Below, in pieces: positions 5,478 to 56,341 of a DNA stretch of 64,000 nucleotides. Where the stretch lies: positions 8,767 to 72,766 of the forward strand of contig JBBIKX010000001.1 in NCBI GenBank assembly GCA_037445205.1, given 5' to 3'. A program made the translations under genes and the position numbers. Position 1 is the first letter of the stretch; every line of letters starts with the position of its first letter. The stretch comes from Candidatus Wildermuthbacteria bacterium. Lineage in GTDB: Bacteria; Patescibacteriota; Minisyncoccia; Minisyncoccales; PEYH01. Below the pieces are notes generated by a model. It saw only the letters and a list, made by a program, of their open reading frames with translations, was not told the DNA's origin and searched no databases.

Positions 5478-6119
5478 ATGTTGACAGACGTTTACAATCA
5501 AAAAGGCGAAAAAACAGGGCAAGCGCAACTGCCCAAGGAGATTTTTGGAGTAAAATTCAGAGCTGATTTGGTGCATCAGGTGTTTTCTTCCATGGTTTCA
5601 AACAAAAGAAGGCCCATCGCTCACGCAAAAGACAGGGGAGAGGTGAGGGGCGGAGGGAAAAAGCCCTGGCGCCAGAAAGGAACGGGCAGGGCAAGACATG
5701 GTTCGATCAGGTCTCCTTTATGGAGAGGCGGCGGGGTTACTTTTGGTCCAAGAAACGAAAGAAATTTTAAAAAAAGCATACCTAAAAAAATGAAAAGGTC
5801 AGCGCTCTTTTCCGTTTTGTCAGCCAAATTAAAAGATAATGAAATTATTGTTTTAGATAATCTTTTCCTGAAAGAACCCAAAACAAAATTAATGGACGAA
5901 ATCCTTGATAATCTTAAAAAAGCCGGTTTAAAGCAAAAAAACTGCTTGATTATTCTTCCAAAAAAGGATAAAAATATAGGACTGGCAGCAAGGAATATCG
6001 CGAAAATAAAAACCGCCCAAATAAATAATTTTAACATTTTAGACATACTTTCGTTTAAATACCTGCTTTTTACAAAAGAAACCATCGGCGCGATGAAAGA
6101 AACATTGATAAAAGATTAA
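5478..6119 (+). CDS. rplD: 50S ribosomal protein L4
   Basis: Contains RGGGKKPWRQKGTGRARHGS; conserved gene order. Confidence 0.95.
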   Translation: MLTDVYNQKGEKTGQAQLPKEIFGVKFRADLVHQVFSSMVSNKRRPIAHAKDRGEVRGGGKKPWRQKGTGRARHGSIRSPLWRGGGVTFGPRNERNFKKSIPKKMKRSALFSVLSAKLKDNEIIVLDNLFLKEPKTKLMDEILDNLKKAGLKQKNCLIILPKKDKNIGLAARNIAKIKTAQINNFNILDILSFKYLLFTKETIGAMKETLIKD

Positions 6120-6120
6120 T

Positions 6121-6525
6121 ATGGCTCCATTGAGAATTTTTAAACAAAAAAAAGAAAGCCCCAAAGAAAAAAAGAAAGAAGAAAAGAAAGAAACCGCAGA
6201 GAAGGTTGTCAAACAGGAAATTTCCAAACCAAGCAAAGTAAGAATGATTGCGTGGAGGGTTGTAAAAGCGCCTCATATTACAGAAAAGGCGACCATCGGG
6301 GAAGAAAGCCGCAGGTATATCTTTAAAATTTTTGAAAGGGCTAATAAGACTGAAACCAAAAAAGCCATTGAAGAAATTTTTAATGTGAAGGTTGAGAAAG
6401 TGAGGATTATTAATGTCCCAAGAAAAAAAAGACAGCGGGGAAGAGTGCGCGGATGGAAGGGGGGATATAAAAAAGCGATAGTGACGTTAAAAGAAGGATA
6501 TAAAATTGAAATTTTATCACGATGA
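6121..6525 (+). CDS. rplW: 50S ribosomal protein L23 with a K/E-rich N-terminal extension
   Basis: The C-terminal half matches L23 (YIFKIFERANKTETKKAIEEIFNVKV); conserved gene order. Confidence 0.93.
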   Translation: MAPLRIFKQKKESPKEKKKEEKKETAEKVVKQEISKPSKVRMIAWRVVKAPHITEKATIGEESRRYIFKIFERANKTETKKAIEEIFNVKVEKVRIINVPRKKRQRGRVRGWKGGYKKAIVTLKEGYKIEILSR

Positions 6526-7352
6526 TAGGGTTTGGCAAAAAAAACATAAGCAGAGGGAAAAAGCTAAAAAGGATTGATCTTTCGGGATTATCTAAAAAGA
6601 AACCCCAAAAAAGCTTGATTTTTTCTTTGAAAAAAAAGTCGGGCAGAAATTTTCAGGGAAGGATTACAGTAAGGCATCGGGGCGGAGGATCAAAAAAATT
6701 TTATCGCATGATTGATTTTTCCCAGAAGAAAATGAACATTGCGGGAAAGGTAGCGGCCATTGAATATGATCCAAACAGGACGGCTTTTATTGCCTTGATA
6801 GAGTACCAAGACAAAACCAAGGGATATATTTTGGCTCCTCAAAAGCTGAAAGAGGGCGATGAGATAATAGTGTCTGAATCAGCGCCTATAAATCCCGCCA
6901 ACAGAATGAAGCTGAAAAATATACCCGTTGGAACAGAAGTCCATAACATTGAATTGCAGCCCTTTGGCGGGGGAAAAATTGTTCGCTCCGCGGGCAGCTC
7001 TGCAACTGTTTTGGCGCAGGAAGGAGGATATGCTCACCTTTTATTGCCCTCAAAAGAAATAAGGAAAATTCATAGCGAATGTTTTGCAAGCATCGGAGCG
7101 CTTTCTCATCAGGAGCATAGATTTATCCGCATTCCCAAAGCAGGCACGATGCGTCTTAAAGGCAGAAGGCCGCAGGTCAGGGGCACTGCGATGAATCCGG
7201 TTGATCATCCCCATGGCGGCGGAGAAGGAAGAACAGGAATTGGCATGCCCCATCCAAAAACTCCTTGGGGAAAGCCGGCCTTGGGAGTAAAAACAAGAAA
7301 GAGAAAACATACCAACCAGTTTATCCTTCAGAGAAGGTCAAAGAAAAAATAA
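6522..7352 (+). CDS. rplB: 50S ribosomal protein L2
   Basis: Contains GTAMNPVDHPHGGGEGR. Confidence 0.97.
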   Translation: MIGFGKKNISRGKKLKRIDLSGLSKKKPQKSLIFSLKKKSGRNFQGRITVRHRGGGSKKFYRMIDFSQKKMNIAGKVAAIEYDPNRTAFIALIEYQDKTKGYILAPQKLKEGDEIIVSESAPINPANRMKLKNIPVGTEVHNIELQPFGGGKIVRSAGSSATVLAQEGGYAHLLLPSKEIRKIHSECFASIGALSHQEHRFIRIPKAGTMRLKGRRPQVRGTAMNPVDHPHGGGEGRTGIGMPHPKTPWGKPALGVKTRKRKHTNQFILQRRSKKK

Positions 7353-7388
7353 CAAACAACCAACAATTAATAAATTATTTTAATTATT

Positions 7389-7730
7389 ATGGCGAGATCA
7401 TTAAAGAAAGGCCCATACATTGATAAAAAACTGATAGAAAAGATTAAAAAAACTGCGCCGGATTCGAAAACCATTATCAAAACATGGGCAAGGGATTGCA
7501 CCATTGTTCCGGAGATGATCGGGCGGTCCATTAATGTCCATAACGGGAAAGATTTTATAACCGTAAAGATAAGCGAAGAAATGGTTGGACATAGATTGGG
7601 AGAGTTTTCGCCGACTACGAAATTCGTAAGGCATGGAGGGAAAATGCAGAGAGATTTAGAGGCAAAAACCGAAGCAAGGGCGTTGCCTCAAAAAGAGACA
7701 GCAGGATTGCCCAAAGATAACAAAAAATAA
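7389..7730 (+). CDS. rpsS: 30S ribosomal protein S19
   Basis: Contains SLKKGPYID, VHNGK and GHRLGEF. Confidence 0.96.
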   Translation: MARSLKKGPYIDKKLIEKIKKTAPDSKTIIKTWARDCTIVPEMIGRSINVHNGKDFITVKISEEMVGHRLGEFSPTTKFVRHGGKMQRDLEAKTEARALPQKETAGLPKDNKK

Positions 7731-7738
7731 TCGCTTGT

Positions 7739-8161
7739 ATGGAAAAAAAAGATGTAGTGGCAAAATTAAATCATTTGAGGGTCGCGCCAAGAAAAGCAAT
7801 GCTTGTGGTTGATTTGATAAGGGGAAAGTCAATTAAAGAGGCGCTTGCTGTTTTGGATTTAGCCAATAAAAAATCAGCCCTGCCCGTTAAGAAATTATTG
7901 AACTCCGCCCTTGCCAACGCTAAAAATAATTTTCATTTAAGCGAAGAAAATTTATATATTTCAAAAATAGTCGTCAATCAGGGCCCAAAATTAAAAAGGT
8001 GGATTGCAAGGTCAAGAGGGCAGGCAAATGAAATCCAGAAGAAGACCAGCCATATTATTCTCGTGCTTTCAGAAAAAAAGAAACCAAAAAGCCCAAAAGA
8101 AAGGAAAATTGACAAAGGCGATAAAAAGCAAATTAAAAATAAAAAGAAGTGGAATAAGTAG
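7739..8161 (+). CDS. rplV: 50S ribosomal protein L22 with a K-rich C-terminal tail
   Basis: Contains LRVAPRKAMLVVDLIRGK; conserved gene order. Confidence 0.95.
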   Translation: MEKKDVVAKLNHLRVAPRKAMLVVDLIRGKSIKEALAVLDLANKKSALPVKKLLNSALANAKNNFHLSEENLYISKIVVNQGPKLKRWIARSRGQANEIQKKTSHIILVLSEKKKPKSPKERKIDKGDKKQIKNKKKWNK

Positions 8162-8175
8162 CATTTATTTATCTT

Positions 8176-8874
8176 ATGGCACACAAGGCTAATCAAAAAA
8201 GTTTAAGAATTGGATATATCGAGGGTTGGGATTCGCGCTGGATAAGCAATCAAAAGTTTCCCAAATATCTGGAGGAGGATTTTTTGATCCGCCGATTTCT
8301 TGAGAAAAAGCTGAGAGATGGAGCGGTGGAGAAGATAGAGATAGAGCGTTTCCCCGGGAAATTGAATATTGCCATTAATACTGCCAGACCGGGCTTGATA
8401 ATCGGGAGGGGAGGAAGGGGAGTTGAGGATCTGAAGGTTGCCATAGAAAAACTTTTGCTCAAAAAAAATGATTCAAAAAAAGAAGCAAGAGGAGTAAGAA
8501 TAGAGATAAAGGAAATAAAGAATCCCTGGATCAGCGCTCCTGTTGTCGCCCAGTGGGCGGCCCAGAGAATAGAAAAAAGATTACCTTATAGAAGAGTGTT
8601 GAAAGAGGCATTATCCAGAGTGATTAATTATAAAGAAGTTCAGGGAGTAAAAATTGAAGTATCAGGGAGACTAAACGGAGTTACCATTGCAAGAAGGGAA
8701 TGGATGCAGAAAGGCAAATTGCCAAGGCAAACTCTGAGGGCAGATATTGATTATGGCTTTGCGCAGGCATATTGCACTTACGGAGTAATAGGAGTAAAAG
8801 TATGGATATATAAAGGAGAGAAGTTTCAACCCCAAGGATTAAAAAACCACAATGCTTTATCCAAAAAAGGTTAA
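8176..8874 (+). CDS. rpsC: 30S ribosomal protein S3
   Basis: KH-domain motif [15 protein letters not shown]; conserved gene order. Confidence 0.96.
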
Positions 8875-9259
8875 ATATAGGAAAATGCAGAGAGGAAAAA
8901 GCAAAGGCATAGAGAGCCGGGGCGTAGATTTGTCCTTTGGTCAGTTTGGATTGAAAGCGCTTGAAGCCCAGTGGATAACGGCGCGCCAGCTTGAAGCGGC
9001 AAGAAGAACAATAGTTTACTATCTTAGAAAGGGCGGAAAGCTTTGGATAAGAATTTTTCCCGATAAACCTGTTACCAGCAAAGGCGTTGAAGTTCCCATG
9101 GGCGGAGGGAAGGGAGCGGTAAGTCATTATGTTTTTTCCGTGAGGCCGGGTAGAATTATTTTTGAGTTGGCAGGCGTTGATGAAAGTATTGCGCGGGAAG
9201 CTTTCACAAAAGCGGCGGCAAAATTCCCCATTAAAACAAAGTTTATAAAAAAGGATTAA
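8852..9259 (+). CDS. rplP: 50S ribosomal protein L16
   Basis: Starts [15 protein letters not shown]; overlaps the rpsC end. Confidence 0.96.
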
Positions 9260-9325
9260 TCCCCGCGTCCGGAGGAGCATTGACAGAAACGGTAAAAATC
9301 ATTATGAAAGAGTTTTAAAATATAA

Positions 9326-9532
9326 ATGATAAAAACAAAGATAAAAGAATTAAGAAGTAAAAATAAAGAAGATTTAGGTCGGCTGCTTTTAAACTTGCGA
9401 GAAAAGCTAAGGCAATTAAAATTTGATTTGGCTTCGGGGAAAATTAAGAATGTAAGCGAAATAAGAAAAATAAGAAAAGAAATAGCCCAGATTTTGACGG
9501 TTCTTGAAGAACATACGGATCAAAAAGTTTAA
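9326..9532 (+). CDS. rpmC: 50S ribosomal protein L29
   Basis: 68 aa, contains ELRSKNKEDL; conserved gene order. Confidence 0.92.
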   Translation: MIKTKIKELRSKNKEDLGRLLLNLREKLRQLKFDLASGKIKNVSEIRKIRKEIAQILTVLEEHTDQKV

Positions 9533-9553
9533 TAATTTTTACATACAGCCAAT

Positions 9554-9787
9554 ATGGCAAAAAAGAAATTAATCGGAAAAATCGTCTCTTCTAAAATGCA
9601 GAAAACAGTCGTTGTAGAGGTTGAAAGAATGAAATTTCATTCCAAGTTTAAAGTGCGCCATAAAATGCATAAGAGGTATAAAGTTCATAATGAGGATCCA
9701 GAATATAAGGTGGGGGATAGGGTGATTATTGAAGAATCTTTGCCAATCAGCAAAGAAAAGAGATGGAGGATTATAAATAAGGTTTAA
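9554..9787 (+). CDS. rpsQ: 30S ribosomal protein S17
   Basis: Contains GKIVSSKMQKTVVVEV; conserved gene order. Confidence 0.94.
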   Translation: MAKKKLIGKIVSSKMQKTVVVEVERMKFHSKFKVRHKMHKRYKVHNEDPEYKVGDRVIIEESLPISKEKRWRIINKV

Positions 9788-9815
9788 TTTTTAATTCAAG
9801 GCGATAATCAAAGCT

Positions 9816-10187
9816 ATGATTCAATTAAGAACAATGCTGACCGTTGCGGACAATACCGGAGCAAAAATAGTGCAGTGCATCCGTGTTTTGGGCGGGAGTA
9901 CGCGCCGATACGCTCGATTGGGTGATATCATAGTTGCGGCTGTCAAAAAAGCAGAACCAAGAAAAATTGTTAAAAACCACGAGGTAGTAAGGGCGGTAGT
10001 GGTCAGGCAAAGGAAAGCGTATAGAAGGGTTGATGGTTCTTACATAAAGTTTGATGAAAATGCGGTGGTGATTTTAGATGGCAAAACAAAAAATCCAAAA
10101 GGGGGGAGAATTTTCGGACCGATCCCCCGCGAGATAAAAGAAAAAGGTTTTGAAAAAATTATAACCCTTTCTCCGGAAGTTGTATAA
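9816..10187 (+). CDS. rplN: 50S ribosomal protein L14
   Basis: Starts [17 protein letters not shown]. Confidence 0.97.
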
Positions 10188-10520: not shown

Positions 10521-11088
10521 AGATATGACCGTAAGAATAAAAGAACAATTTGGAGAAAAGATAAACCTGAAAATGAAGGAGCTTTTTGGATATCGAAGCC
10601 GTCTTTCAGCGCCCAAGATAAAAAAGGTTGTTGTAAATGTCGGATTCGGAAATTTGGTGGCTAACAAATCAAAGCAAGAGAGAGAAAAAATATACGAAGA
10701 AATAGCCAAAGATTTAGCGATCATAACCGGGCAGAAACCGATTGCCACCAGAGCAAAAAAATCCATTGCGGCTTTTAAAGTAAGAAGCGGCATGGCTTTA
10801 GGCGCCAAAGTAACTCTTAGGCGCCAGAAAATGAATGATTTTTTGGAAAGATTGATTAATATCGCCCTTCCCCGCACAAGGGATTTTAAGGGCATTGATC
10901 TTAAATGTATTGATCAGGGAGGCAATTTGAATTTTGGAATTAAAGAGCAGATTTCTTTTCCCGAGATTGCCCCGGAAAAGATTAAAAGAATTTTTGGTTT
11001 TGAAATTACCATAGTGACAAGCGCAAAAAGCCCAAAAGAGGCGATAGAATTATTTAAACTGCTTGGCTTTCCCTTAAAAAATCAATAA
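10513..11088 (+). CDS. rplE: 50S ribosomal protein L5
   Basis: Contains VVVNVGFG and FPEI motifs; conserved gene order. Confidence 0.95.
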   Translation: MTKDMTVRIKEQFGEKINLKMKELFGYRSRLSAPKIKKVVVNVGFGNLVANKSKQEREKIYEEIAKDLAIITGQKPIATRAKKSIAAFKVRSGMALGAKVTLRRQKMNDFLERLINIALPRTRDFKGIDLKCIDQGGNLNFGIKEQISFPEIAPEKIKRIFGFEITIVTSAKSPKEAIELFKLLGFPLKNQ

Positions 11089-11097
11089 GATTTAAAT

Positions 11098-11283
11098 ATG
11101 GCTACAGAAGCGCAAATATACAAATCTTTAAAAAATCCGAAATTCAGCTCAAGAATTATGAGAAGATGTTTTAGATGCGGAAGAAAAAAGGGATATCTGA
11201 GAAAATTTGGCCTTTGTAGAATTTGTTTCAGAGAATTAGCGCATAAAGGCCTTATTCCCGGAATCAGAAAATCAAGCTGGTAA
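11098..11283 (+). CDS. rpsN: 30S ribosomal protein S14, short zinc-ribbon type (type Z)
   Basis: 61 aa with [21 protein letters not shown]. Confidence 0.95.
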
Positions 11284-11305
11284 ATTACATTTATTAAAAA
11301 AAGAT

Positions 11306-11692
11306 ATGGATTCAATCGCAGAAATGCTAATTAGGATAAAAAACGCCCAATCCGCAGGGAAGCCGACGGTGGATGTTGATTATTCTTCCGTAAAATATCA
11401 AATAGCGAATATTCTTGTAAAGAAGGATTTTCTTGAGGCGGTGGAGCGGAAATTCAAAAAGCAAAAAAAGTTTTTAAGATTAATTTTAAAATATGTAGAC
11501 AAAGAGCCGAAAATGAGGGGAGTAAAAAGGATTTCCAAGCCGGGGAGAAGAGTTTATTTGCCGTCTAAAAAAATAAAATCTTCAAAAGGAGTTTTTAGCG
11601 TTGTTATTGTCTCTACCTCTCAGGGGATAATGTCTCACATAGACGCGCGAAAGAAGAATTTGGGAGGAGAAATTATTTGTGAAGTCTGGTAA
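11306..11692 (+). CDS. rpsH: 30S ribosomal protein S8
   Basis: Contains IAEMLIRIKNA and GGEIICEVW. Confidence 0.96.
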   Translation: MDSIAEMLIRIKNAQSAGKPTVDVDYSSVKYQIANILVKKDFLEAVERKFKKQKKFLRLILKYVDKEPKMRGVKRISKPGRRVYLPSKKIKSSKGVFSVVIVSTSQGIMSHIDARKKNLGGEIICEVW

Positions 11693-11694
11693 AT

Positions 11695-12246
11695 ATGTCC
11701 CGCTTATCAAAAAAACCAATTGTTATTCCCGCCGGCATAGAAGCCGAGATTTTGCAAGGCACGATTAGGATAAAAGGCCCCAAGGGCGAGCTTTCTTTTA
11801 CTTTACATCCAAAGATAGAGATTTTAAAAGAGAGCAAAAAAATAAAAATTAAGACAAAAACCCTGACAAAGAAAACGAAATCTCTTTTGGGCCTTAGTAT
11901 AAGAATGATTTGCGCAATGATTGAGGGGGTTATTAAGGGATATGAAAAACAGTTAATAATAGAAGGAGTTGGATATAAGGCGAACGTAGAAGGAGAAGAT
12001 TTGATTTTGGAGGCGGGCTTCTCTCATAAGGTGAAAATGAAAATTCCCGAGGGCCTGAAAATAACTGTTGCCAAGAATGTTATCAGCATCTTGGGCGCAG
12101 ACAAGCAGGTTGTTGGCGAATTTGCCGCCAGAATTAAAAAAATAAAACCGCCCGAGCCGTATAAAGGAAAGGGGATTAGATATGCAAACGAAAAAATCAA
12201 AAAGAAATTTAGCAAAAAAGCAACTGCGGCCGCCAGCGCCGCTTAG
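11695..12246 (+). CDS. rplF: 50S ribosomal protein L6
   Basis: Contains SRLSKKPIVIP and EPYKGKGIRY. Confidence 0.96.
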   Translation: MSRLSKKPIVIPAGIEAEILQGTIRIKGPKGELSFTLHPKIEILKESKKIKIKTKTLTKKTKSLLGLSIRMICAMIEGVIKGYEKQLIIEGVGYKANVEGEDLILEAGFSHKVKMKIPEGLKITVAKNVISILGADKQVVGEFAARIKKIKPPEPYKGKGIRYANEKIKKKFSKKATAAASAA

Positions 12247-12262
12247 CGGATTCATATAAAAA

Positions 12263-12688
12263 ATGCCCAGCAAATTATCAAAAATTAAAAAAAGAATAAG
12301 AAGGCATAAAAGATGCAGAGCAAAGATTTTTGGCACGGCGCTAAAACCGCGACTTTGCGTTTTTCGCTCAAATAAACATATTTATGCGCAGTTGATTGAT
12401 GATGAAAAAAGAAAAGTATTGCTGTCGGCAAGCGATTTTGAAGTTAAGGGCCAAAAAAACAAAGCGCCATCTTTAAAAATTAAGGATAAAAACAAAAATG
12501 ATTCAAAAAAAGAGGATATTTTGCAAAGCGTTAAAAGGTCTATTGCTTATAAGGTTGGAGCTTTAATCGCCCAAAAAGCTTTTGCCAAAAAAATCAAAAA
12601 AATAGTCTTTGACAGGGGCGGATATAAATATCATGGCCGGGTTAGAGCGCTTGCAGAGGGAGCGCGCAACGAAGGTCTGGAATTTTAA
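12263..12688 (+). CDS. rplR: 50S ribosomal protein L18 (with an internal K-rich insertion)
   Basis: Contains PRLCVFRSNKHIYAQ and FDRGGYKYHGRVRALAEGAR. Confidence 0.94.
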   Translation: MPSKLSKIKKRIRRHKRCRAKIFGTALKPRLCVFRSNKHIYAQLIDDEKRKVLLSASDFEVKGQKNKAPSLKIKDKNKNDSKKEDILQSVKRSIAYKVGALIAQKAFAKKIKKIVFDRGGYKYHGRVRALAEGARNEGLEF

Positions 12689-49163: not shown

Positions 49164-49364
49164 ATGAATTTCTCATCTTTTCCCAAAAAGATCCTTAATT
49201 ATTTCAAAGAGGTCAAAACAGAAACAAAAAAAGTCAATTGGCCTACAAAAAAAGAAGCGACTAAATACACCTTAATTGTTATTGCTGTTATTGTTGTTGT
49301 TTCTGTCTTTCTGGGCTTTTTGGACATTATTTTTACCCTTATTTTAGATAAATTCATTTTTTAA
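49164..49364 (+). CDS. secE: Preprotein translocase subunit SecE
   Basis: 66 aa. Contains VKTETKKVNWPTKKE plus a C-terminal TM helix; precedes nusG. Confidence 0.88.
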   Translation: MNFSSFPKKILNYFKEVKTETKKVNWPTKKEATKYTLIVIAVIVVVSVFLGFLDIIFTLILDKFIF

Positions 49365-49367
49365 ACT

Positions 49368-49913
49368 ATGCCCAAGCAACAATTGCCCGAACAGCGAAAA
49401 TGGTACGCAATCCACACATATTCGGGATATGAAGATGCGGTTTCAAGAAATCTCAAGCAGAGGATTGAGTCTTTGGGAATGGAAGATAAAATTTTCAGCG
49501 TTCTGGTTCCCAAAGAAAAAAAAATTAAAATTAAGAACGGAAAACGATATTCCATTGAAGAAAAAATTTATCCGGGATATGTTTTGGTAGAAATGATTGT
49601 CACAGACGATTCTTGGTATGTGGTCAGAAACACTCCCAATGTTACGGGATTCGTCGGCGCTGGCACTACGCCCGTGCCTCTTTCCGAAGAGGAAATATCG
49701 GTTCTGAAAAATAGGATGGAGGGAGAGACGCCCAAATACCAGATAAGTTTTAAAATAAGCGACCATGTAAAAATTATTGATGGCCCTTTCAAAGATTACG
49801 AAGGAAAGGTTTCAGAAATAAATCAAGACGAGGGAAAAATTAAGGTAATGATAAATCTATTTGGAAGAGATACGCCAGTTGAATTAGATTCCCTGCAAGC
49901 CAAAAAAATATGA
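49368..49913 (+). CDS. nusG: Transcription antitermination factor NusG
   Basis: Contains WYAIHTYSGYE, and a KOW domain (GPFKDYEGKVSEIN). Confidence 0.95.
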   Translation: MPKQQLPEQRKWYAIHTYSGYEDAVSRNLKQRIESLGMEDKIFSVLVPKEKKIKIKNGKRYSIEEKIYPGYVLVEMIVTDDSWYVVRNTPNVTGFVGAGTTPVPLSEEEISVLKNRMEGETPKYQISFKISDHVKIIDGPFKDYEGKVSEINQDEGKIKVMINLFGRDTPVELDSLQAKKI

Positions 49914-50006: not shown

Positions 50007-50429
50007 ATGAAAAAAATACAAACAAAAGTTAAACTCCATATCGCCGCCGCTCAGGCTAATCCCGCCCCTCCTATCGGTCCCGCCCTTGCGCAACACGGAA
50101 TAAACATCGCTGACTTTTGCCAGAAGTTTAATGCCGCAACTAAAAATCTGGCAGGTTATCAGATTCCTGTTGAAATATCAATATACGAGGACAGGACTTT
50201 TAATTTTAAAATAAAACAGCCCCTTGTCAGCGATCTTTTAAAAAAGGCAGCGGGCATTGAGAAAGGGTCGGGCGAGCCGAATAAAATTAAGGCTGGAATA
50301 ATCACCAAAGAGCAGTTAAAAGAGATTGCCCAGAAGAAATTAGACGATTTAAACACAAAAAACATTGATGCCGCAATGAAAATTATTGAAGGACAGGCAA
50401 GATCAATGGGAATTGAAATTAAAAATTAG
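50007..50429 (+). CDS. rplK: 50S ribosomal protein L11
   Basis: Contains [21 protein letters not shown]. Confidence 0.96.
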
Positions 50430-50434
50430 TTTTT

Positions 50435-51265
50435 ATGACCCAGTTTGACGAGCAGTATAAACAAGCAATCTGGGAAGTAATGAACGGAGGTACGGAAATT
50501 TACAGCGCAAGACAGAAATGTCATACCAAAGCTTTTCCGGGCATAACCTTTAATTTAGACAAAGGATTTCCTCTGCTTACTTTGAGAAAAATTCCTGTTA
50601 AAATTTTTGTCGCTGAACAATTCTGGTTTTTGATGGGCGAAAAAGACCCCAAGGTTTTTTTAAAAAAATTTACTGCCATATGGGATGATTTTGCCGATCA
50701 AAATGGATTAGTTTTGGGCGCTTATGGCTATCGCTGGAGGAAGCATTTTGGGAAAGATCAAATAGCCAATTTGTTGAGCCTTCTTTCCCAGGATCCAAGT
50801 TCGCGTCACGGAGTTGTGGTGGCGTGGGATCCCTCAGACGACATCAGGACCCTTGATTCAAAAAAGAAAAACGTTCCCTGCCCCTATACTTTCACTGTTA
50901 ATATTATCGGCAATAAGCTTCATATTCATATTATTATAAGGTCAAACGATATGATTCTTGGCTGTCCTCACGATATTGCGGGATTTGCGCTTTTGCAAAG
51001 GATTTTGGCCGGAAAGCTGGGGGTAAAGACAGGAAAGCTTACTTGTTCCATCAGCAATGCCCACATTTACGATATTCATTACAATGCGGCATGGGAGATG
51101 CTTGAAAGAAAAAACAATCATCCCGAAATTATTTTGGACGCAGAAGAAAATTGGTTTGACAGGGCGGAGAAGGGAGATGAATCGCTTGCTCAAGAAATTA
51201 TAGATACCATTGCAAGACAATATAGCCCGATGAATCCCATTAAGGGCTTAAAAATTATTTTATAA
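50435..51265 (+). CDS. ThyA-family pyrimidine-nucleotide C5 methylase/hydroxymethylase homologue, with Asp at the Asn177-equivalent position
   Basis: Aligns without gaps to E. coli ThyA over [27 protein letters not shown] against KLHIHIIIRSNDMILGCPHDIAGFALL. The catalytic Cys (VPCP, codon 149) and the AHIY motif are present. Confidence 0.8.
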   Translation: MTQFDEQYKQAIWEVMNGGTEIYSARQKCHTKAFPGITFNLDKGFPLLTLRKIPVKIFVAEQFWFLMGEKDPKVFLKKFTAIWDDFADQNGLVLGAYGYRWRKHFGKDQIANLLSLLSQDPSSRHGVVVAWDPSDDIRTLDSKKKNVPCPYTFTVNIIGNKLHIHIIIRSNDMILGCPHDIAGFALLQRILAGKLGVKTGKLTCSISNAHIYDIHYNAAWEMLERKNNHPEIILDAEENWFDRAEKGDESLAQEIIDTIARQYSPMNPIKGLKIIL

Positions 51266-51270
51266 ATTAT

Positions 51271-51777
51271 ATGAAAATAATTTTAGTAATGGCAATCACG
51301 CTTGATGGGAAAATTGCCAAGACAAAAGACCATTTTCCAAACTGGACGTCAAAGGAGGATAAAAACTTCTTTGCCAAAATTTCAAAAAAGCACAAGGTCG
51401 TCTTAATGGGAAAGAACACTTTTGATACCTTCAAAAAACCGCTCAAAGACAGATTAAATGTGGTTTTTACAAATAAAAAAAATCTGGCGAAGATAAAAAA
51501 TGTAATGTGGGTTTCGGGCAAAATAAGTCCGATTTTAAAAAAGCTGGAAAAGAGGGGATATAAATCGGCGGTTCTTGGCGGAGGAGCAATGTTGAACGCA
51601 GAGTTCTTAAAGGAAAAATTGATAGATGAGGTTATAGTCACAATCAATCCCAAAATCTTTGGGCGAGGGATATCTTTGTTTGAAGGAGATTTTGATATTG
51701 ATTTAAAACTTTTAAAAGTGGAAAATATTAATAAAGATACGATAGCTCTTCGTTATAGGCCGGTGTTTTGTAATTAA
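51271..51777 (+). CDS. Dihydrofolate-reductase-like protein (RibD C-terminal domain family)
   Basis: Contains MKIILVMAITLDGKIA, VVLMGKNTF and VLGGGAMLNAEFL. Confidence 0.75.
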   Translation: MKIILVMAITLDGKIAKTKDHFPNWTSKEDKNFFAKISKKHKVVLMGKNTFDTFKKPLKDRLNVVFTNKKNLAKIKNVMWVSGKISPILKKLEKRGYKSAVLGGGAMLNAEFLKEKLIDEVIVTINPKIFGRGISLFEGDFDIDLKLLKVENINKDTIALRYRPVFCN

Positions 51778-51786
51778 ATTAAAAAT

Positions 51787-52443
51787 ATGCCCCTATCAAA
51801 ACCTGAAATCATAAAATCCATCCAAGAAGAGAAAATTAAATTTGAACCGTCTCTTGATAAATTTCAGCTTCAGCCCCATTCCATTGATTTGCGGCTTGGT
51901 TGGAATTTTTATATACCAAAAAACTGGGCAATCACGGAAAAGGGAAGGGTTGGCGTAAGTATTGATTATTTGGACACGCAATCCCAAAAAGACAACTTTG
52001 ATTTAATCAAATTAAAACCCGGTCAGTATTTTGAAATTTTGCCAAAAGAATTCATTATTGCTTCGACAATGGAAAAGGTGGTTATAGAAGCCGATAAGCT
52101 AATGGCATTGTTGTATCCCAGAAGCTCTTTTACAAGAAAAGGGTTGTTCATTGCCAGCGGAATCGTTGATGTAAAATACAGCGGATATCTGGCTCTTTCA
52201 GTGATAAACAATACAGAAACCCAGATTATAAGGCTATATCCGGGCGAAAGAGTGTGCCAGCTGGTCTTTCATTTTTTAAGCTCTGCTTTGTCGCCAGAAG
52301 AGGCAATTAAGCACGGGATAAGCGATTCCAAATATTTAAAAGCGGCTCCTTATTCTCTTGAGGCAAAAAGCGACAATCAGGAAGAAATAGATCTAATCAG
52401 ATTTGGAAAGATTGGCGAATTGAAAGAAAAATTCAAATTATAA
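51787..52443 (+). CDS. dcd: dCTP deaminase family protein
   Basis: Contains SIDLRLG, GIVDVKYSGYLALSVIN and VCQLVF. Confidence 0.8.
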   Translation: MPLSKPEIIKSIQEEKIKFEPSLDKFQLQPHSIDLRLGWNFYIPKNWAITEKGRVGVSIDYLDTQSQKDNFDLIKLKPGQYFEILPKEFIIASTMEKVVIEADKLMALLYPRSSFTRKGLFIASGIVDVKYSGYLALSVINNTETQIIRLYPGERVCQLVFHFLSSALSPEEAIKHGISDSKYLKAAPYSLEAKSDNQEEIDLIRFGKIGELKEKFKL

Positions 52444-52449
52444 AAGCCG

Positions 52450-52908
52450 ATGGGAAAAGAAGGAATAAAATATCCCTATTTGCCGGAAGCAAGAGAAATA
52501 AAATTTGTTTCAGAAAAAAATATTTTTATCAGGGAGGCGAAGAAAATTTGCAAAAAGAAAGGATGCATTGCGCATCCAACAGGGGCGGTTTTGGTCAAAA
52601 AGAATAAAATCATAGGGAAGGGGACTAACGCCGCAAAAAAAATAAAAGATTGTCCAAGGGCTTTGAAAAAAAGCAAGACCGGCCAAGATTATCATTTATG
52701 CAAAAAAATTTGCCTGCAGGAAGGACACGCAGAAGCGATGGCGATTAAAAGCGCAAAAGAAAAAAAGGAGAAAATCAGAGGAGCAGATTTATATCTTTAT
52801 GGCCATTGGTGGTGCTGTAAAGATTGTTGGGATAAAATCATCAAAGAAGGGATAGGAGAGGTTTATTTAATTGAAAACGCTTTTGATAAATTTCATAAGC
52901 GAATATGA
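52450..52908 (+). CDS. Deoxycytidylate (dCMP)/cytidine deaminase zinc-binding family
   Basis: Contains the HAEAMAI and CCKDC zinc ligands. Confidence 0.8.
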   Translation: MGKEGIKYPYLPEAREIKFVSEKNIFIREAKKICKKKGCIAHPTGAVLVKKNKIIGKGTNAAKKIKDCPRALKKSKTGQDYHLCKKICLQEGHAEAMAIKSAKEKKEKIRGADLYLYGHWWCCKDCWDKIIKEGIGEVYLIENAFDKFHKRI

Positions 52909-53540
52909 AAAAAAATCCTTATCTTGGAAAATTCATAGTTTTTGAAGGGCTGGACGGGTCCGGACAAAGCACCCAAGCATCAAAACTGGTGGATTATTTC
53001 AATGAAAAAAACCAGATATTTAAATTTGGGCATACCGGAGCGCATCTTACCAAAGAGCCGACATCCGGAATTATTGGAGGATTAATCAGGGGCCAGCTAT
53101 CTTTTGACTGGAAATCTTCTCAAGAATGCCTCCAGCTTTTATTTGCGGCAGATCGGGCGTACCATCTAGAAAAGGAGATTTTGCCTCTTTTGGAAATGGG
53201 CGTAACGGTGGTTTGCGATCGTTATTTTTTTTCTTCTTGCGCCTTCGGGGCGCTGGAGGCCGATCAGGAATGGCTTTTAAAAATCAATGAAAAGTTTCTT
53301 TTGCCTGATTTGATATTCCTGCTTGCTGTTTCTCCCAAAATCTGCATTGAAAGAATAAAAAGAAATCGTTTTGAAATAAATCTTTTTGAAAACGAAGAAA
53401 TATTAAAAAATGTGTGGGAGAAATACTTGATATTGGCACATCAAAATAAAAACACGCATATTATAGACGGGGAACGGCCGATCAATGAGATTTTTGAGGA
53501 GATTAAAGAAATAACTGATAGGAAATTTAACCAACGATGA
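52905..53540 (+). CDS. tmk: Thymidylate (dTMP) kinase
   Basis: P-loop FIVFEGLDGSGQSTQ, and the DRY motif (CDRYFFSS). Confidence 0.9.
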   Translation: MKKNPYLGKFIVFEGLDGSGQSTQASKLVDYFNEKNQIFKFGHTGAHLTKEPTSGIIGGLIRGQLSFDWKSSQECLQLLFAADRAYHLEKEILPLLEMGVTVVCDRYFFSSCAFGALEADQEWLLKINEKFLLPDLIFLLAVSPKICIERIKRNRFEINLFENEEILKNVWEKYLILAHQNKNTHIIDGERPINEIFEEIKEITDRKFNQR

Positions 53541-55024
53541 TAAATTCATCAAAAAAATATATTCCCGTCATCGGGCTTGAAATACATACGGAATTAAAAA
53601 CTAATTCCAAAATGTTTTGCGGGTGCAAAAACGATTCGCAGGAAAAAGAAGCGAATTTGAATATTTGTCCTGTTTGCATGGGTCATCCCGGCACTCTCCC
53701 CGTTATAAACAAAACAGCGATTCGTTTTGTCATAAAAACAGGGATTGCTCTGAATTGTAAAATTACAAAAGAGTCGCGATTTGAAAGAAAAAATTATTTT
53801 TATCCCGATCTTCCAAAAGGATATCAGATTTCTCAATACAAAGAGCCGTTTTGTTTTAATGGCTTTTTAAAAATAAATAATAAAAAAATAAGAATTAGAA
53901 GGGTTCATTTGGAAGAAGATACTGCCCGCCTGATACACTCCAAAAATGGATATTCGCTGATTGATTTCAACCGCGCCGGCATTCCTTTAATGGAGCTTGT
54001 AACGGAGCCGGACATAGAATCTTCTAAAGAGGCATCAGACTTCGCAAAAAAACTTCAGTTGATCCTGAGATATTTAAATGTTTCCAGCGCTGACATGGAA
54101 AAAGGGCAATTGAGAGTGGAGGCAAATATTTCATTAATAAACGCAAATTTTAAAGCAAAAAACGCAAAACTAGGAACAAAGGTGGAGATCAAAAATTTAA
54201 ATTCGTTTAGGGCAGTTGAGAGGGCGATAGAATATGAAATAGAAAGGCAAAAGGAGTTACTATTAAATGATGAGAGGGTGGCGCAGGAAACAAGAGGATG
54301 GGATCCTCAATCAGAAAGAACCTTTCCCCAGAGAGAAAAAGAAGAGGCGCATGATTACCGCTACTTTCCAGAGCCGGATTTGCCCCAGATTTATATAAAA
54401 AAAGACTATCTGGAGGCGATAAAAAAAGGAATTCCCGAACTTCCCGATCAAAAAATAAAAAGATTAAAAGAAGAATTTTTTGTTAACGAACAATCAGCCC
54501 AGATTCTTGTCTCTAACAGAGATTTAAGCGAGTATTTTGAAAAATCGGCAAGCGAGCTTTTAAGATGGTCAAAAGACAAAAGATTAGATCAAAAGAGCCA
54601 AAAAGAATTGATACAGAGCGCCGCCAACTATCTTTTGACAGATTTACTCGGCTGTCTTTCAGGGAAAGAATTTTCAGAAAAAGATTTTCCCATAACGCCT
54701 GAAAATTTCGGAGAGTTTATCGCTCTTGTCCGCGATAAAAAATTCACAAGCAAAATGGCAAAAATTCTTTTAGGAGAGATGTTTGATTCCGGCCAAGATC
54801 CCTCAACCATAATAAAAAAAAGAGGATTAATCCAGACGGACAACGAAGATGAGATTAAAAAAATAGTGCAAAAAATAATTTCATCAAATCCTCGGGCATT
54901 TGAAGATTATAAAAAAGGAAAAGAAAATGCTCTTCAATTCATGATTGGACAAATGATGAAAGAAACTAAAGGCACTATAAATCCCCAGATGGCAAAGAAA
55001 GCGTTGATTGATTTTTTAAAATAA
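53537..55024 (+). CDS. gatB: Glu/Asp-tRNA amidotransferase subunit B
   Basis: Contains IGLEIHTELKT, VCMGHPGTLPVINK and RVEANISL. Confidence 0.95.
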   Translation: MINSSKKYIPVIGLEIHTELKTNSKMFCGCKNDSQEKEANLNICPVCMGHPGTLPVINKTAIRFVIKTGIALNCKITKESRFERKNYFYPDLPKGYQISQYKEPFCFNGFLKINNKKIRIRRVHLEEDTARLIHSKNGYSLIDFNRAGIPLMELVTEPDIESSKEASDFAKKLQLILRYLNVSSADMEKGQLRVEANISLINANFKAKNAKLGTKVEIKNLNSFRAVERAIEYEIERQKELLLNDERVAQETRGWDPQSERTFPQREKEEAHDYRYFPEPDLPQIYIKKDYLEAIKKGIPELPDQKIKRLKEEFFVNEQSAQILVSNRDLSEYFEKSASELLRWSKDKRLDQKSQKELIQSAANYLLTDLLGCLSGKEFSEKDFPITPENFGEFIALVRDKKFTSKMAKILLGEMFDSGQDPSTIIKKRGLIQTDNEDEIKKIVQKIISSNPRAFEDYKKGKENALQFMIGQMMKETKGTINPQMAKKALIDFLK

Positions 55025-55032: not shown

Positions 55033-55135
55033 ACTTAAAATCCAGAATAAGGAGGTGGTCGCCGGGATACAGTCCAAAGAGGGCGAGGGGCGTTTTCGGA
55101 AGCAAAACCGGATCTTTCTTGCGAAAGGAGCATCG

Positions 55136-55333
55136 ATGCCAGCAGTAAATCTTGTTAACGTGGCGAGGTCATTGCCGGACGAAGAGGCGGAGAGGCTTTT
55201 GCTCATCGAGCAAAGCAATCCTGATTGCCTCAGGGCGCTTTTTGCGGTCGTTCTGAGCGCCGGAACGCTGGAAAAAGCTGTTCCTCTGATCCAACGAGTT
55301 CTTGCTGGCGCACCCTTGTTTCCGGGCGGATGA
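55136..55333 (+). CDS. 65-aa helical protein, unknown family (a 92-aa form from the GTG at 55055 is possible)
   Basis: AAAGGAG(55124-55130) lies 5 nt before the ATG at 55136. The same frame is open from 55055, but that GTG sits inside an SD (AAGGAGGTG 55049-55057). Confidence 0.5.
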   Translation: MPAVNLVNVARSLPDEEAERLLLIEQSNPDCLRALFAVVLSAGTLEKAVPLIQRVLAGAPLFPGG

Positions 55334-56341
55334 AACTGGATGGGGCTCCCTTCGGGAGCCCCCTTGTTTTGTTAAAAAAGTATTTATTATTTTTCTGGCT
55401 TTTTTTTTATCCCCAACCCAATTTACTCTTTTGTCTTTTTTAAACCAGGTTATTTGTCTTTTGGCGTAACTTTCAATTGCTTTTTGGAGCATTCCGACCA
55501 TTTCATCATAGCCAATTTTTTTTTGAAGATAGCAAGCAATATATCTGTATTCCAATCCAAATTCTTCAAGCCGTTTCCAGGAAACGCCGTCTTTTCTTAG
55601 CGCTCTGACCTCTTTTATCATCCCCTGATTTAATCTTTTGTATAGCCGTTTTCTGATTAAATTTTTTAGCTCTTTTTTTTCTTTCTTGATGCCGATAATG
55701 AGCAAATCAAACAATTGGCTTTTTTTTATGACGGGTACCGGTTTTTTTGATTTCAAAACTATTTCAATTGCCCGGATTAATCTGCGGGGATTTTTTTTAT
55801 CAATAATTTTTGCCCGCCGCGGGTCCAGTTTTTTTAACATTTGATAAAGCTGGTTTGGCAATTTTTTTTCCAGTTTTTTCCTTAATTTCCAGTCCGGCGG
55901 AATTTTTGGGATGACGATTCCGTCAACGACTGATTGAATATAGAATCCGGTGCCGCCGCAAAGAATGGGCAGCTTATTTCTCTTATGGATTTCCCTTATT
56001 TTTTTTAATGCCATTTTTTGATACTGGGCGACCGTAAATTTCCTTTTTGGAGAAGCAACATCCAAAAGATGATGTTGGATGCCTCTATAAAGATATGACT
56101 GTTTTGAAATTTGAGATTTAGGACTTGGAGTTTGTTTAGAAATTAGAAATTTGGAATTAGAAATTTTATCTCGTGGAACCTTCCCGGTTCCGATATCCAT
56201 TTTGCGATAAACCTGACGGGAATCGGCCGAAATCACCTCTCCGTTAAAATTTTTTGCCAGTGCTACCGCCAAATCGCTTTTTCCCGAAGCAGTGGGTCCA
56301 AGAATAACTAACAATATTTTTCGGTCCGTTTTTTTTGACAT
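55169..56341 (-). CDS. miaA: tRNA dimethylallyltransferase MiaA. The conserved core is 55364-56341; the ORF then runs 64 further codons antisense into cassette C.
   Basis: P-loop LGPTASGKS, plus DSRQVY, GGTGFY and AKRQITWF. The homologous end (KIINTFLTKQ) coincides with the composition boundary at about 55364. Confidence 0.88.
   Translation of the reverse strand: MSKKTDRKILLVILGPTASGKSDLAVALAKNFNGEVISADSRQVYRKMDIGTGKVPRDKISNSKFLISKQTPSPKSQISKQSYLYRGIQHHLLDVASPKRKFTVAQYQKMALKKIREIHKRNKLPILCGGTGFYIQSVVDGIVIPKIPPDWKLRKKLEKKLPNQLYQMLKKLDPRRAKIIDKKNPRRLIRAIEIVLKSKKPVPVIKKSQLFDLLIIGIKKEKKELKNLIRKRLYKRLNQGMIKEVRALRKDGVSWKRLEEFGLEYRYIACYLQKKIGYDEMVGMLQKAIESYAKRQITWFKKDKRVNWVGDKKKARKIINTFLTKQGGSRREPHPVSSARKQGCASKNSLDQRNSFFQRSGAQNDRKKRPEAIRIALLDEQKPLRLFVRQ
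55342..55372 (+). terminator. Terminator of cassette C
   Basis: GGGGCTCCC(55342-55350) pairs with GGGAGCCCC(55354-55362), followed by CTTGTTTTGTT. Confidence 0.7.

Follow-up and report, generated by a model that had tools for sequence, protein, structure and literature searches.

Which route to thymidylate is encoded by a gene cluster whose thymidylate synthase (TS) homologue carries the specificity residue of cytosine-using enzymes? The question is raised by five genes at 50435-53540 of a 64,000-nt stretch of contig JBBIKX010000001.1 from a Candidatus Wildermuthbacteria bacterium, a member of the candidate phyla radiation (CPR); this whole stretch is referred to here as the window. The genes lie between rplK and gatB and encode a ThyA-like protein, a dihydrofolate reductase (DHFR)-like protein, a Dcd-family protein, a dCMP-deaminase-family protein and the dTMP kinase Tmk. 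These families had been proposed in a first-pass annotation made from the sequence, and Pfam and NCBIfam, which we used for all family calls, confirmed the five assignments. The same annotation had put forward the idea that dTMP could be made by methylation of dCMP to 5-methyl-dCMP and subsequent deamination. Our comparisons favor this idea in a modified form: with a probability of about 0.5, the cluster is a housekeeping thymidylate module leading from dCTP via dCMP, 5-methyl-dCMP and dTMP to dTDP, and would correspond, within a cell, to the nucleotide module that Xp12-type phages carry. The gene content and order, residue patterns, folds and conservation described below were observed directly. 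The cluster has the following features.

50435-51265, + strand: ThyA-like protein of the D177/P147 type (276 aa; PF00303, E 8e-50), predicted dCMP C5-methyltransferase (5-methyl-dCMP synthase)
50879-50884, + strand: codons of the catalytic Cys149 and of Pro150 (E. coli C146 and H147; from alignment)
50972-50974, + strand: GAT codon of Asp180 (E. coli N177; from alignment), the pyrimidine-specificity determinant
51271-51777, + strand: DHFR-like protein (RibD_C/DHFR_1; 168 aa; PF01872, E 1e-24; PF00186, E 4e-14), predicted to recycle the dihydrofolate (DHF) made by the methylase
51787-52443, + strand: Dcd/DCD-DUT-fold protein without the deaminase Glu (218 aa; PF22769, E 5e-29), predicted dCTP (or dUTP) pyrophosphatase
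52198-52200, + strand: TCA codon of Ser138, which replaces the catalytic Glu (E138 of E. coli Dcd; from alignment)
52450-52908, + strand: zinc deaminase of the dCMP deaminase family (152 aa; PF00383, E 2e-13), predicted to convert a 5-methyl-dC nucleotide to a dT nucleotide
52726-52734, + strand: His93-Ala-Glu95 of the deaminase (zinc ligand and catalytic Glu; invariant motif)
52816-52827, + strand: Cys123-x-x-Cys126 of the deaminase (zinc ligands; invariant motif)
52905-53540, + strand: tmk, dTMP kinase (211 aa; PF02223, E 2e-44; TIGR00041)

The ThyA-like enzyme and its pyrimidine pocket

The ThyA-like protein was aligned with solved ThyA structures and with E. coli ThyA (264 aa), whose numbering is used below. 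Its Asp180 corresponds to E. coli N177, so that the Asp variant mentioned in the first-pass annotation is real, and a Pro occupies the position of H147. The same pair, D177 and P147, is present in 120 of 120 database homologues (58-85% identity, from Patescibacteria metagenome-assembled genomes (MAGs)), whose named sources label the protein 'thymidylate synthase'; the Asn177 and His147 of the canonical ThyA pocket are found in no member of the family. The catalytic set is kept (C146, E58, Y94, R21, R126, R166, S167, D169, H207 and Y209), with C146, E58, Y94, R166, D169, H207 and Y209 being invariant in the 120 homologues. A TS becomes a dCMP methylase upon the exchange N177D/N229D, and in MetaGPA no positions discriminate better between cytosine-modifying and ordinary TS homologues than 177 and 147 (PMC8670742). 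D177 marks the cytosine-using members of the family, for example T4 gp42 and MilA (PMC5175136).

The similarity to the TS of phage Xp12 goes beyond these two positions. The residues A57, F83, N143, P147, T151 and D177 and the motifs KNVPCP, YGYRWRxHFGxDQ and WDPxxDG are common to both proteins; the signature residues are the same in the TS of a Janthinobacterium phage and of phiH2, and the TS of phage Tedan has S151. ThyA of E. coli and KVP40 has instead H/G57, W/N83, L143, H147, Q151 and N177, and KNVPCP and YGYRWRxHFGxDQ are absent from both. In BLAST, the protein scored 147 bits with Xp12 TS versus 109 bits with E. coli ThyA. A HMMER scan covered 1.84 billion cluster representatives; among the nearest 150, which we inspected, approximately 125 carry D177, 94 of these also have P147, and canonical H147/N177 representatives (21 of the 150) start only at about rank 78. 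A neighbor-joining tree of 60 sequences (100 bootstraps) united all D177 sequences in a 37-member clade comprising the query together with CPR, Chloroflexi and Xp12-type phage enzymes (68% bootstrap), and all 22 N177 sequences fell outside this clade. These comparisons point to an enzyme of the dCMP type rather than a canonical ThyA, and we predict that it is a 5-methyl-dCMP synthase.

D177 is shared by enzymes that form other products, and position 143 (hydrophobic or acidic) and the exchange D169N distinguish formation of methyl, hydroxymethyl and hydroxy products (PMC13326640). Position 143, read by a fixed offset from the catalytic Cys and by pairwise comparisons, is N and thus not acidic, and D169 is kept. 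By these rules, a hydroxymethylase or a 5-hydroxy-dCMP synthase is unlikely; the co-occurrence of genes for DHFR and serine hydroxymethyltransferase (SHMT), described below, speaks against them too.

A second, divergent TS-family paralogue of ~343 aa adjoins the D177 TS in several Chloroflexi and some CPR loci (L066, where it lies at 10856-11887 with PF00303 at E 3e-10, and L068, L071, L073, L079, L060, L058, L054, L055, L035, L033 and L045; L-numbers, e.g. L002-L081, denote related loci fetched for comparison). It apparently lacks the catalytic Cys ('GIPPYQFFQ') and may be a pseudo-enzyme partner or have a different chemistry.

The Dcd-like protein and the other partner enzymes

The Dcd-family protein had been counted in the first-pass annotation as one of two deaminases acting at different phosphorylation levels. 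This premise fails. In pairwise and profile alignments with solved Dcd and DCD-DUT enzymes, Ser138 sits where the catalytic Glu is expected (E138 in E. coli, E129 in M. tuberculosis, E145 in M. jannaschii), and the local segment reads 'LALSVIN' versus 'ITLELFN' or 'ITLELSN' in the solved enzymes. The site is occupied by Pro in 73 and by Ser in 3 of 78 orthologues from the related loci, and by Pro in 113, Ser in 6 and Ala in 1 of 120 database homologues; Glu occurs in neither set. Since the Glu is missing family-wide, a true dCTP deaminase was ruled out as a candidate: the Dcd-like protein is very probably not a deaminase, which probably leaves the cluster with a single deaminase instead of two.

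Other parts of the active site are retained. The equivalents of R110, S111, R115, D128, Y131, G133 and N141, which bind the nucleotide and its phosphates and are shared with dUTPases, are conserved, and dUTPase motifs II (R-S-S/G) and III (G-x-I/V-D-x-x-Y-x-G) are present. The Gly-rich motif V of classical Dut was not seen in the last 50 residues, where a Dcd-type 'SKY' segment is found instead (visual comparison with the E. coli proteins Dcd and Dut). The AlphaFold (AF2) model has a predicted local distance difference test score of 87, and its closest Foldseek structures are the dCTP deaminase-dUTPases of M. tuberculosis and B. halodurans (30% identity, root-mean-square deviation 1.9 Å). The protein resembles the bifunctional enzymes Rv0321 of M. 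tuberculosis, MJ0430 of M. jannaschii and that of B. halodurans in the equivalents of Ser111, Arg115 and Asp128 and in the Dcd-type C-terminus, whereas the catalytic Glu is theirs and Ser or Pro takes its place throughout the Dcd-like family. The structure search also matched archaeal dUTPases of the Dcd fold (8y1w, 9ln0), which are a precedent for members of this fold having no Glu. Judged by these residues and folds, the Dcd-like protein is most likely a dCTP/dUTP pyrophosphatase, for which only the pyrophosphatase half-reaction is expected.

Base specificity is not readable from the sequence, and it is the gene context that leads us to favor dCTP hydrolysis to dCMP. In about 21 related loci, a separate gene for a canonical Dut is located within 10 kb of the module. 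Hence the Dcd-like protein cannot simply be equated with Dut, and the possibility that it is the only Dut of the cell is weakened. No other gene accompanies the TS homologue as faithfully as the Dcd-like gene, which lies no more than 3 kb away in 75 of 80 loci, and in phages a nucleotide pyrophosphohydrolase is encoded along with the D177 TS or fused to it.

The deaminase has the H93-x-E95 and C123-x-x-C126 motifs invariant in its family, which is further characterized by the motif GHWWCCxxCW and by C68, R70, G78 and Y81, all invariant, and the nearly invariant C84. Profile searches matched 2hvv (E 2e-10), 4p9c, 1vq2 and 2w4l, and Foldseek found the same set with template-modeling (TM) scores of 0.52-0.58. 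By profile and structure it is closest to the dCMP deaminases of S. mutans, cyanophage S-TIM5, T4, PBCV-1 and human, yet it is divergent (29.4 bits with the ComEB model TIGR02571 versus a cutoff of 219). In about 9 CPR loci, the deaminase open reading frame (ORF) continues into a nucleoside 2-deoxyribosyltransferase-like (DNPH1/Rcl) domain (L024 at 11504-12412, L056 at 7874-8737, L009, L022, L049, L041, L052, L008 and L015). In Anaerolineae, a stand-alone DNPH1/Rcl-like copy is found directly upstream of the TS homologue (L066 at 9576-10004), and no deaminase was detected there.

The DHFR-like protein scored 53 bits with PF00186 (cutoff 25) and 87.5 bits with PF01872 (cutoff 24.1), and its BLAST matches include the DHFR of Xp12 (E 1e-9) and E. 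coli FolA (E 6e-7). It is predicted from these matches to recycle the DHF made by the methylase. Tmk is a standard enzyme (151.6 bits with TIGR00041 versus a cutoff of 83.25; P-loop GLDGSGQST). Fusions of ~400 aa with an N-terminal Tmk and a C-terminal canonical Dut are encoded a few kb from the module in L056 (9292-10485) and L009 (4310-5512).

Distribution, phage counterparts and genomic surroundings

A close relative of the TS homologue is present in at least 455 species genomes of CPR and some Chloroflexi; the scan used one genome per species, and counts from it are a lower bound. The 'unusual enzyme combination' of the first-pass annotation is thus correct as to the gene set, but this set is the norm in a large part of CPR. 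Among 80 fetched loci, most of which show the same gene set, 77 contain the Dcd-like gene, 63 the deaminase (on the same strand downstream, or upstream in divergent orientation), 55 the DHFR-like gene, 37 rplK and 23 tmk. All four core genes occur in 33 of the 56 loci having at least 3 kb on both sides. The SHMT gene glyA lies within 10 kb in 25 loci. DHFR and SHMT together make up the full folate cycle of thymidylate synthesis, and therefore a DHF-producing methylation, i.e., a methylase, is indicated.

Some MAGs of Anaerolineae and Ktedonobacterales (Chloroflexi) carry the pair of TS and Dcd-like genes within a richer cluster. In Anaerolineae (L066 at 5791-9579), the module includes a class II (B12-dependent) ribonucleotide reductase with an ATP-cone, a short-chain dehydrogenase/reductase that could replace DHFR, and a second Glu-less Dcd paralogue. 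Many contigs with related loci (L006, L011, L013, L015, L017 and others) were deposited as 'uncultured Gammaproteobacteria bacterium' or 'Candidatus Saccharibacteria bacterium'; judged by gene content and by similarity to Patescibacteria MAGs, these taxon labels look like placeholders or errors.

The nearest phage relatives of the TS homologue are those of Xp12, the Janthinobacterium phage, Pseudomonas phage phiH2 and Ruegeria phage Tedan, and in all four the operon consists of a pyrophosphohydrolase or HAD gene followed by TS, dCMP deaminase and DHFR. Natural fusions of a dCMP deaminase with a D177 TS (P0266, 433 aa) and of a MazG-like phosphoribosyl-ATP pyrophosphohydrolase (PRA-PH) with a D177 TS (P0327, 424 aa) tie the three activities together independently. 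Formation of 5-methyl-dCMP was shown for Xp12 TS and for five out of seven further D177 TS homologues, deaminases of the dCMP deaminase family encoded in cis can be selective for 5-methylcytosine (5mC), and the authors of that study proposed that the cis deaminases supply dT nucleotides from 5mC nucleotides (bioRxiv 10.1101/2024.12.05.627091).

The CPR module resembles the Xp12/PaMx74-type operon (Bradleyvirinae, Pamexvirus) in the TS signature and motifs (about 35% identity), in having a DHFR-like and a dCMP-deaminase-family gene in the same operon, in the function of a nucleotide pyrophosphatase, and in the proposed chemistry, in which dCMP would be converted to 5-methyl-dCMP and deamination would follow to give dT nucleotides. 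It differs in being cellular, located beside ribosomal genes and spread over the species genomes counted above. In addition, a Glu-less protein of the Dcd fold stands in place of the MazG/PRA-PH or HAD pyrophosphatase, the deaminase belongs to another subfamily (GHWWCCxxCW) than that of Xp12, and the CPR module adds Tmk. Xp12-type phages have 5mC in their DNA; for the bacteria carrying the module, 5mC in the DNA is a conjecture.

Phage T4 encodes the dCTPase/dUTPase gp56, the dCMP hydroxymethylase gp42, Cd, Frd and Td. The likeness to this set is one of logic, with conversion of dCTP to dCMP by a pyrophosphatase of the dUTPase superfamily, C5 transfer to dCMP that a D177-type TS homologue carries out, and the presence of both a dCMP deaminase and a DHFR. 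However, gp42, in which D179 is the specificity Asp, is only about 24% identical to the ThyA-like protein, is a hydroxymethylase with an acidic residue at position 143 that forms no DHF, and T4 keeps a canonical Td for dUMP.

In the window, the module is flanked by the following genes.

49164-49364, + strand: secE (ORF; homologues upstream of the module in 27 related loci)
49368-49913, + strand: nusG (PF02357, E 4e-29, and a KOW domain)
50007-50429, + strand: rplK, ribosomal protein L11 (PF03946 and PF00298), with the module directly downstream and without rplA
53537-55024, + strand: gatB (PF02934 and PF02637)

The number, order and tight spacing of the five genes had been described correctly in the first-pass annotation: according to the ORF table, the gaps from rplK to the deaminase are 5, 5, 9 and 6 nt, the deaminase/tmk and tmk/gatB junctions are 4-nt ATGA-type stop/start overlaps, and all genes are on the + strand. 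A consensus scan found no convincing terminator within the gene string, the strongest terminator-like hairpin being located 3' of gatB (55342-55362). The G+C content of the module resembles that of the flanking DNA. In tblastn searches of the window, no thyX, canonical thyA, dut, glyA, cmk, ndk, ung or rplA was found, and neither thyX nor an N177 thyA was found within 10 kb in any related locus.

The missing rplA (ribosomal protein L1), likewise pointed out in the first-pass annotation, was confirmed for the entire window. In 20 of 81 related loci, rplA separates rplK from the module; the closest relatives (L002-L004 and L047) lack it, as is the case here. Two sources describe L1 loss as a known CPR trait (bioRxiv 10.1101/2022.01.07.475337; OD1-L1 in PMC5220378), and its absence in the window is consistent with L1 loss in some CPR lineages. 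Nor is rplK followed by rplJ, rplL and rpoBC.

A G+C-rich stretch of ~330 nt follows gatB (55033-55365, + strand); it is preceded by a promoter-like TTGATT-17-TATAAT and ends in the strong terminator-like hairpin. Its minimum-free-energy z-score is -2.5. No Rfam family matched at the gathering score (a weak match to the RNase MRP/RNase P clan had 10.8 bits, E 0.64), and a tmRNA was not found. The stretch could represent a structured RNA missed in annotation, possibly a divergent RNase P RNA. The miaA ORF (55169-56341, - strand, 390 aa) overlaps it on the opposite strand with its oddly composed C-terminal ~75 aa; this tail is probably read-through into the putative RNA gene and not real protein.

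The proposed pathway and competing explanations

The pathway is assembled from activities that are all predicted from sequence and gene context. The Glu-less Dcd-fold protein would hydrolyze dCTP to dCMP and pyrophosphate, and the D177/P147 TS homologue, as its signature and its kinship to validated phage enzymes suggest, would methylate dCMP at C5 with methylene-tetrahydrofolate to 5-methyl-dCMP and DHF. The DHFR-like protein would reduce DHF to tetrahydrofolate, which a neighboring SHMT in related genomes would recharge. The dCMP-deaminase-family enzyme would then convert a 5-methylcytosine nucleotide to a thymine nucleotide, either at the monophosphate level, yielding dTMP, or at the triphosphate level, as does the phage enzyme mSCD-B5, and Tmk would phosphorylate dTMP to dTDP. 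Because of the specificity Asp, the Xp12 signature, the Xp12-like gene company and the 5-methyl-dCMP data for phage enzymes, the sequence from dCMP via 5-methyl-dCMP to dTMP is the best-supported reading among those compared.

Several observations weigh against this pathway. The bootstrap support of the D177 clade is only moderate. The ThyA-like protein scores above the cutoff of TIGR03284 (thymidylate synthase; 122.3 versus 108.35 bits), and the Dcd-like protein above that of TIGR02274 (dCTP deaminase; 102 versus 92.8 bits); the ThyA models as a whole give a mixed picture, as NF002497 (144 versus 327 bits) and the others stay below cutoff. Canonical Dut near the module in many relatives means that dUMP is produced, which fits a dUMP-using TS. 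An E. coli dcd knockout is complemented by Dictyostelium Dcd2, which nests among the Dcd homologues of CPR and Chloroflexi (PMC10733785); Dcd2 may or may not belong to the Glu-less family, and a dCTPase might also relieve the dcd phenotype. BLAST of the CPR deaminase against the Xp12 deaminase gave no match, and the preference of the former for 5-methyl substrates is purely inferred. Finally, mSCD-B5, the only characterized phage partner, acts on 5-methyl-dCTP and not on monophosphates (10.1101/2024.12.05.627091).

A competing explanation is that the cluster is the canonical pathway, with the Asp177 enzyme as an ordinary dUMP methylase, the deaminase converting dCMP to dUMP, and the Dcd-like protein as a dUTPase beside DHFR and Tmk. 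All five families belong to textbook dTMP synthesis, and the canonical route (Dcd and Dut or dCMP deaminase, ThyA, FolA, Tmk) has the same families, leads to the same product (dTMP/dTDP) and commonly has thyA and folA adjacent; the NCBIfam thym_sym and dCTP_deam models lie above cutoff, the Dut nearby would generate dUMP, and archaeal Dcd-fold proteins without the Glu are dUTPases. The canonical route, however, has N177/H147 where the module has D/P, and its Dcd has the catalytic Glu that is missing here; in the module, methylation is predicted to precede deamination instead of following it. D177 and P147 are invariant, mutagenesis and phage enzymology tie Asp177 to the use of dCMP, the family groups with the validated dCMP methyltransferase of Xp12 and not with N177 ThyA, and a pure dUTPase role would be redundant where a second, canonical Dut stands beside the Dcd-like gene. 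We therefore regard the canonical pathway as unlikely, albeit as an explanation to be taken seriously. A recently acquired phage or defense island, acting for example by nucleotide depletion, is in our opinion extremely unlikely and was rejected. The nearest characterized TS relatives are indeed phage enzymes, and the deaminase weakly matches models of anti-phage dCTP deaminases (PADLOC E 5e-4; NCBIfam E 2e-6, far below cutoff), but PADLOC gave no significant defense-system match for the cluster. Moreover, the genes are embedded in the string from rplK to gatB with stop/start overlaps, this position or vicinity and the synteny with core genes are conserved across many CPR lineages, the G+C content is like that of the surroundings, and only 3 contigs in IMG/VR carry a close relative, compared with the at least 455 species genomes. 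The module is core metabolism and not a mobile island.

A further explanation, which takes up the modified-cytosine alternative of the first-pass annotation and could coexist with the dCMP methylation pathway, is that the module supplies 5-methyl-dCTP for DNA while the Dcd-like dCTPase depletes dCTP, so that C is largely or wholly 5mC and the deaminase diverts part of it to dT. The quartet of pyrophosphatase, D177 TS, deaminase and DHFR is that of phages that fully replace C with 5mC, and neither the window nor ~1.3 Mb of related loci yielded a DNA C5-methyltransferase of the Dcm/M.HhaI type, a weak argument as the same genomic neighborhood was sampled. Bringing 5-methyl-dC into DNA in an E. 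coli assay involved co-expression of a T4 gp1-type kinase (10.1101/2024.12.05.627091). The cluster contains no such promiscuous dNMP kinase, its sole kinase being a standard Tmk, and the module is housekeeping-like in its place beside ribosomal genes. Many CPR genomes have been sequenced with long reads, and we know of no report of global 5mC. This role in DNA modification seems quite improbable. It is very doubtful that the module-bearing CPR and Chloroflexi both route dTMP via 5-methyl-dCMP and also deplete dCTP and incorporate 5-methyl-dCTP, so that chromosomal C is largely or entirely 5mC; if wholesale 5mC were true, these would be the first cellular organisms with whole-base replacement made at the nucleotide level.

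In the literature, we did not find a description of a cellular dCMP methylase route in CPR, although the search was incomplete for subscription journals and a prior description is possible; one CPR paper treats the gene as an ordinary thyA (PMC12455944). To summarize, the module would be the cellular version of the route proposed for 5mC phages and is typical of its lineage, not exceptional, with each catalytic step holding as a prediction. If the proposal is true, a large slice of the bacterial tree makes thymidylate by methylation of dCMP followed by deamination and not by methylation of dUMP, a route so far proposed only for 5-methylcytosine phages. For these CPR and Chloroflexi genomes, the names 'thymidylate synthase' and 'dCTP deaminase' would then denote the wrong substrate or reaction, metabolic reconstructions of these host-dependent bacteria would change, and the deaminase family would offer new candidates for 5mC-selective deaminases. 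The enzymes have a small size and can be expressed without difficulty, and as some MAGs of Ktedonobacterales and Anaerolineae carry the pair of TS and Dcd-like genes, their cultured relatives, if carriers, could be used to test the idea. The proposal would also link phage DNA-modification enzymes to a cellular housekeeping module and raise the question of which came first.

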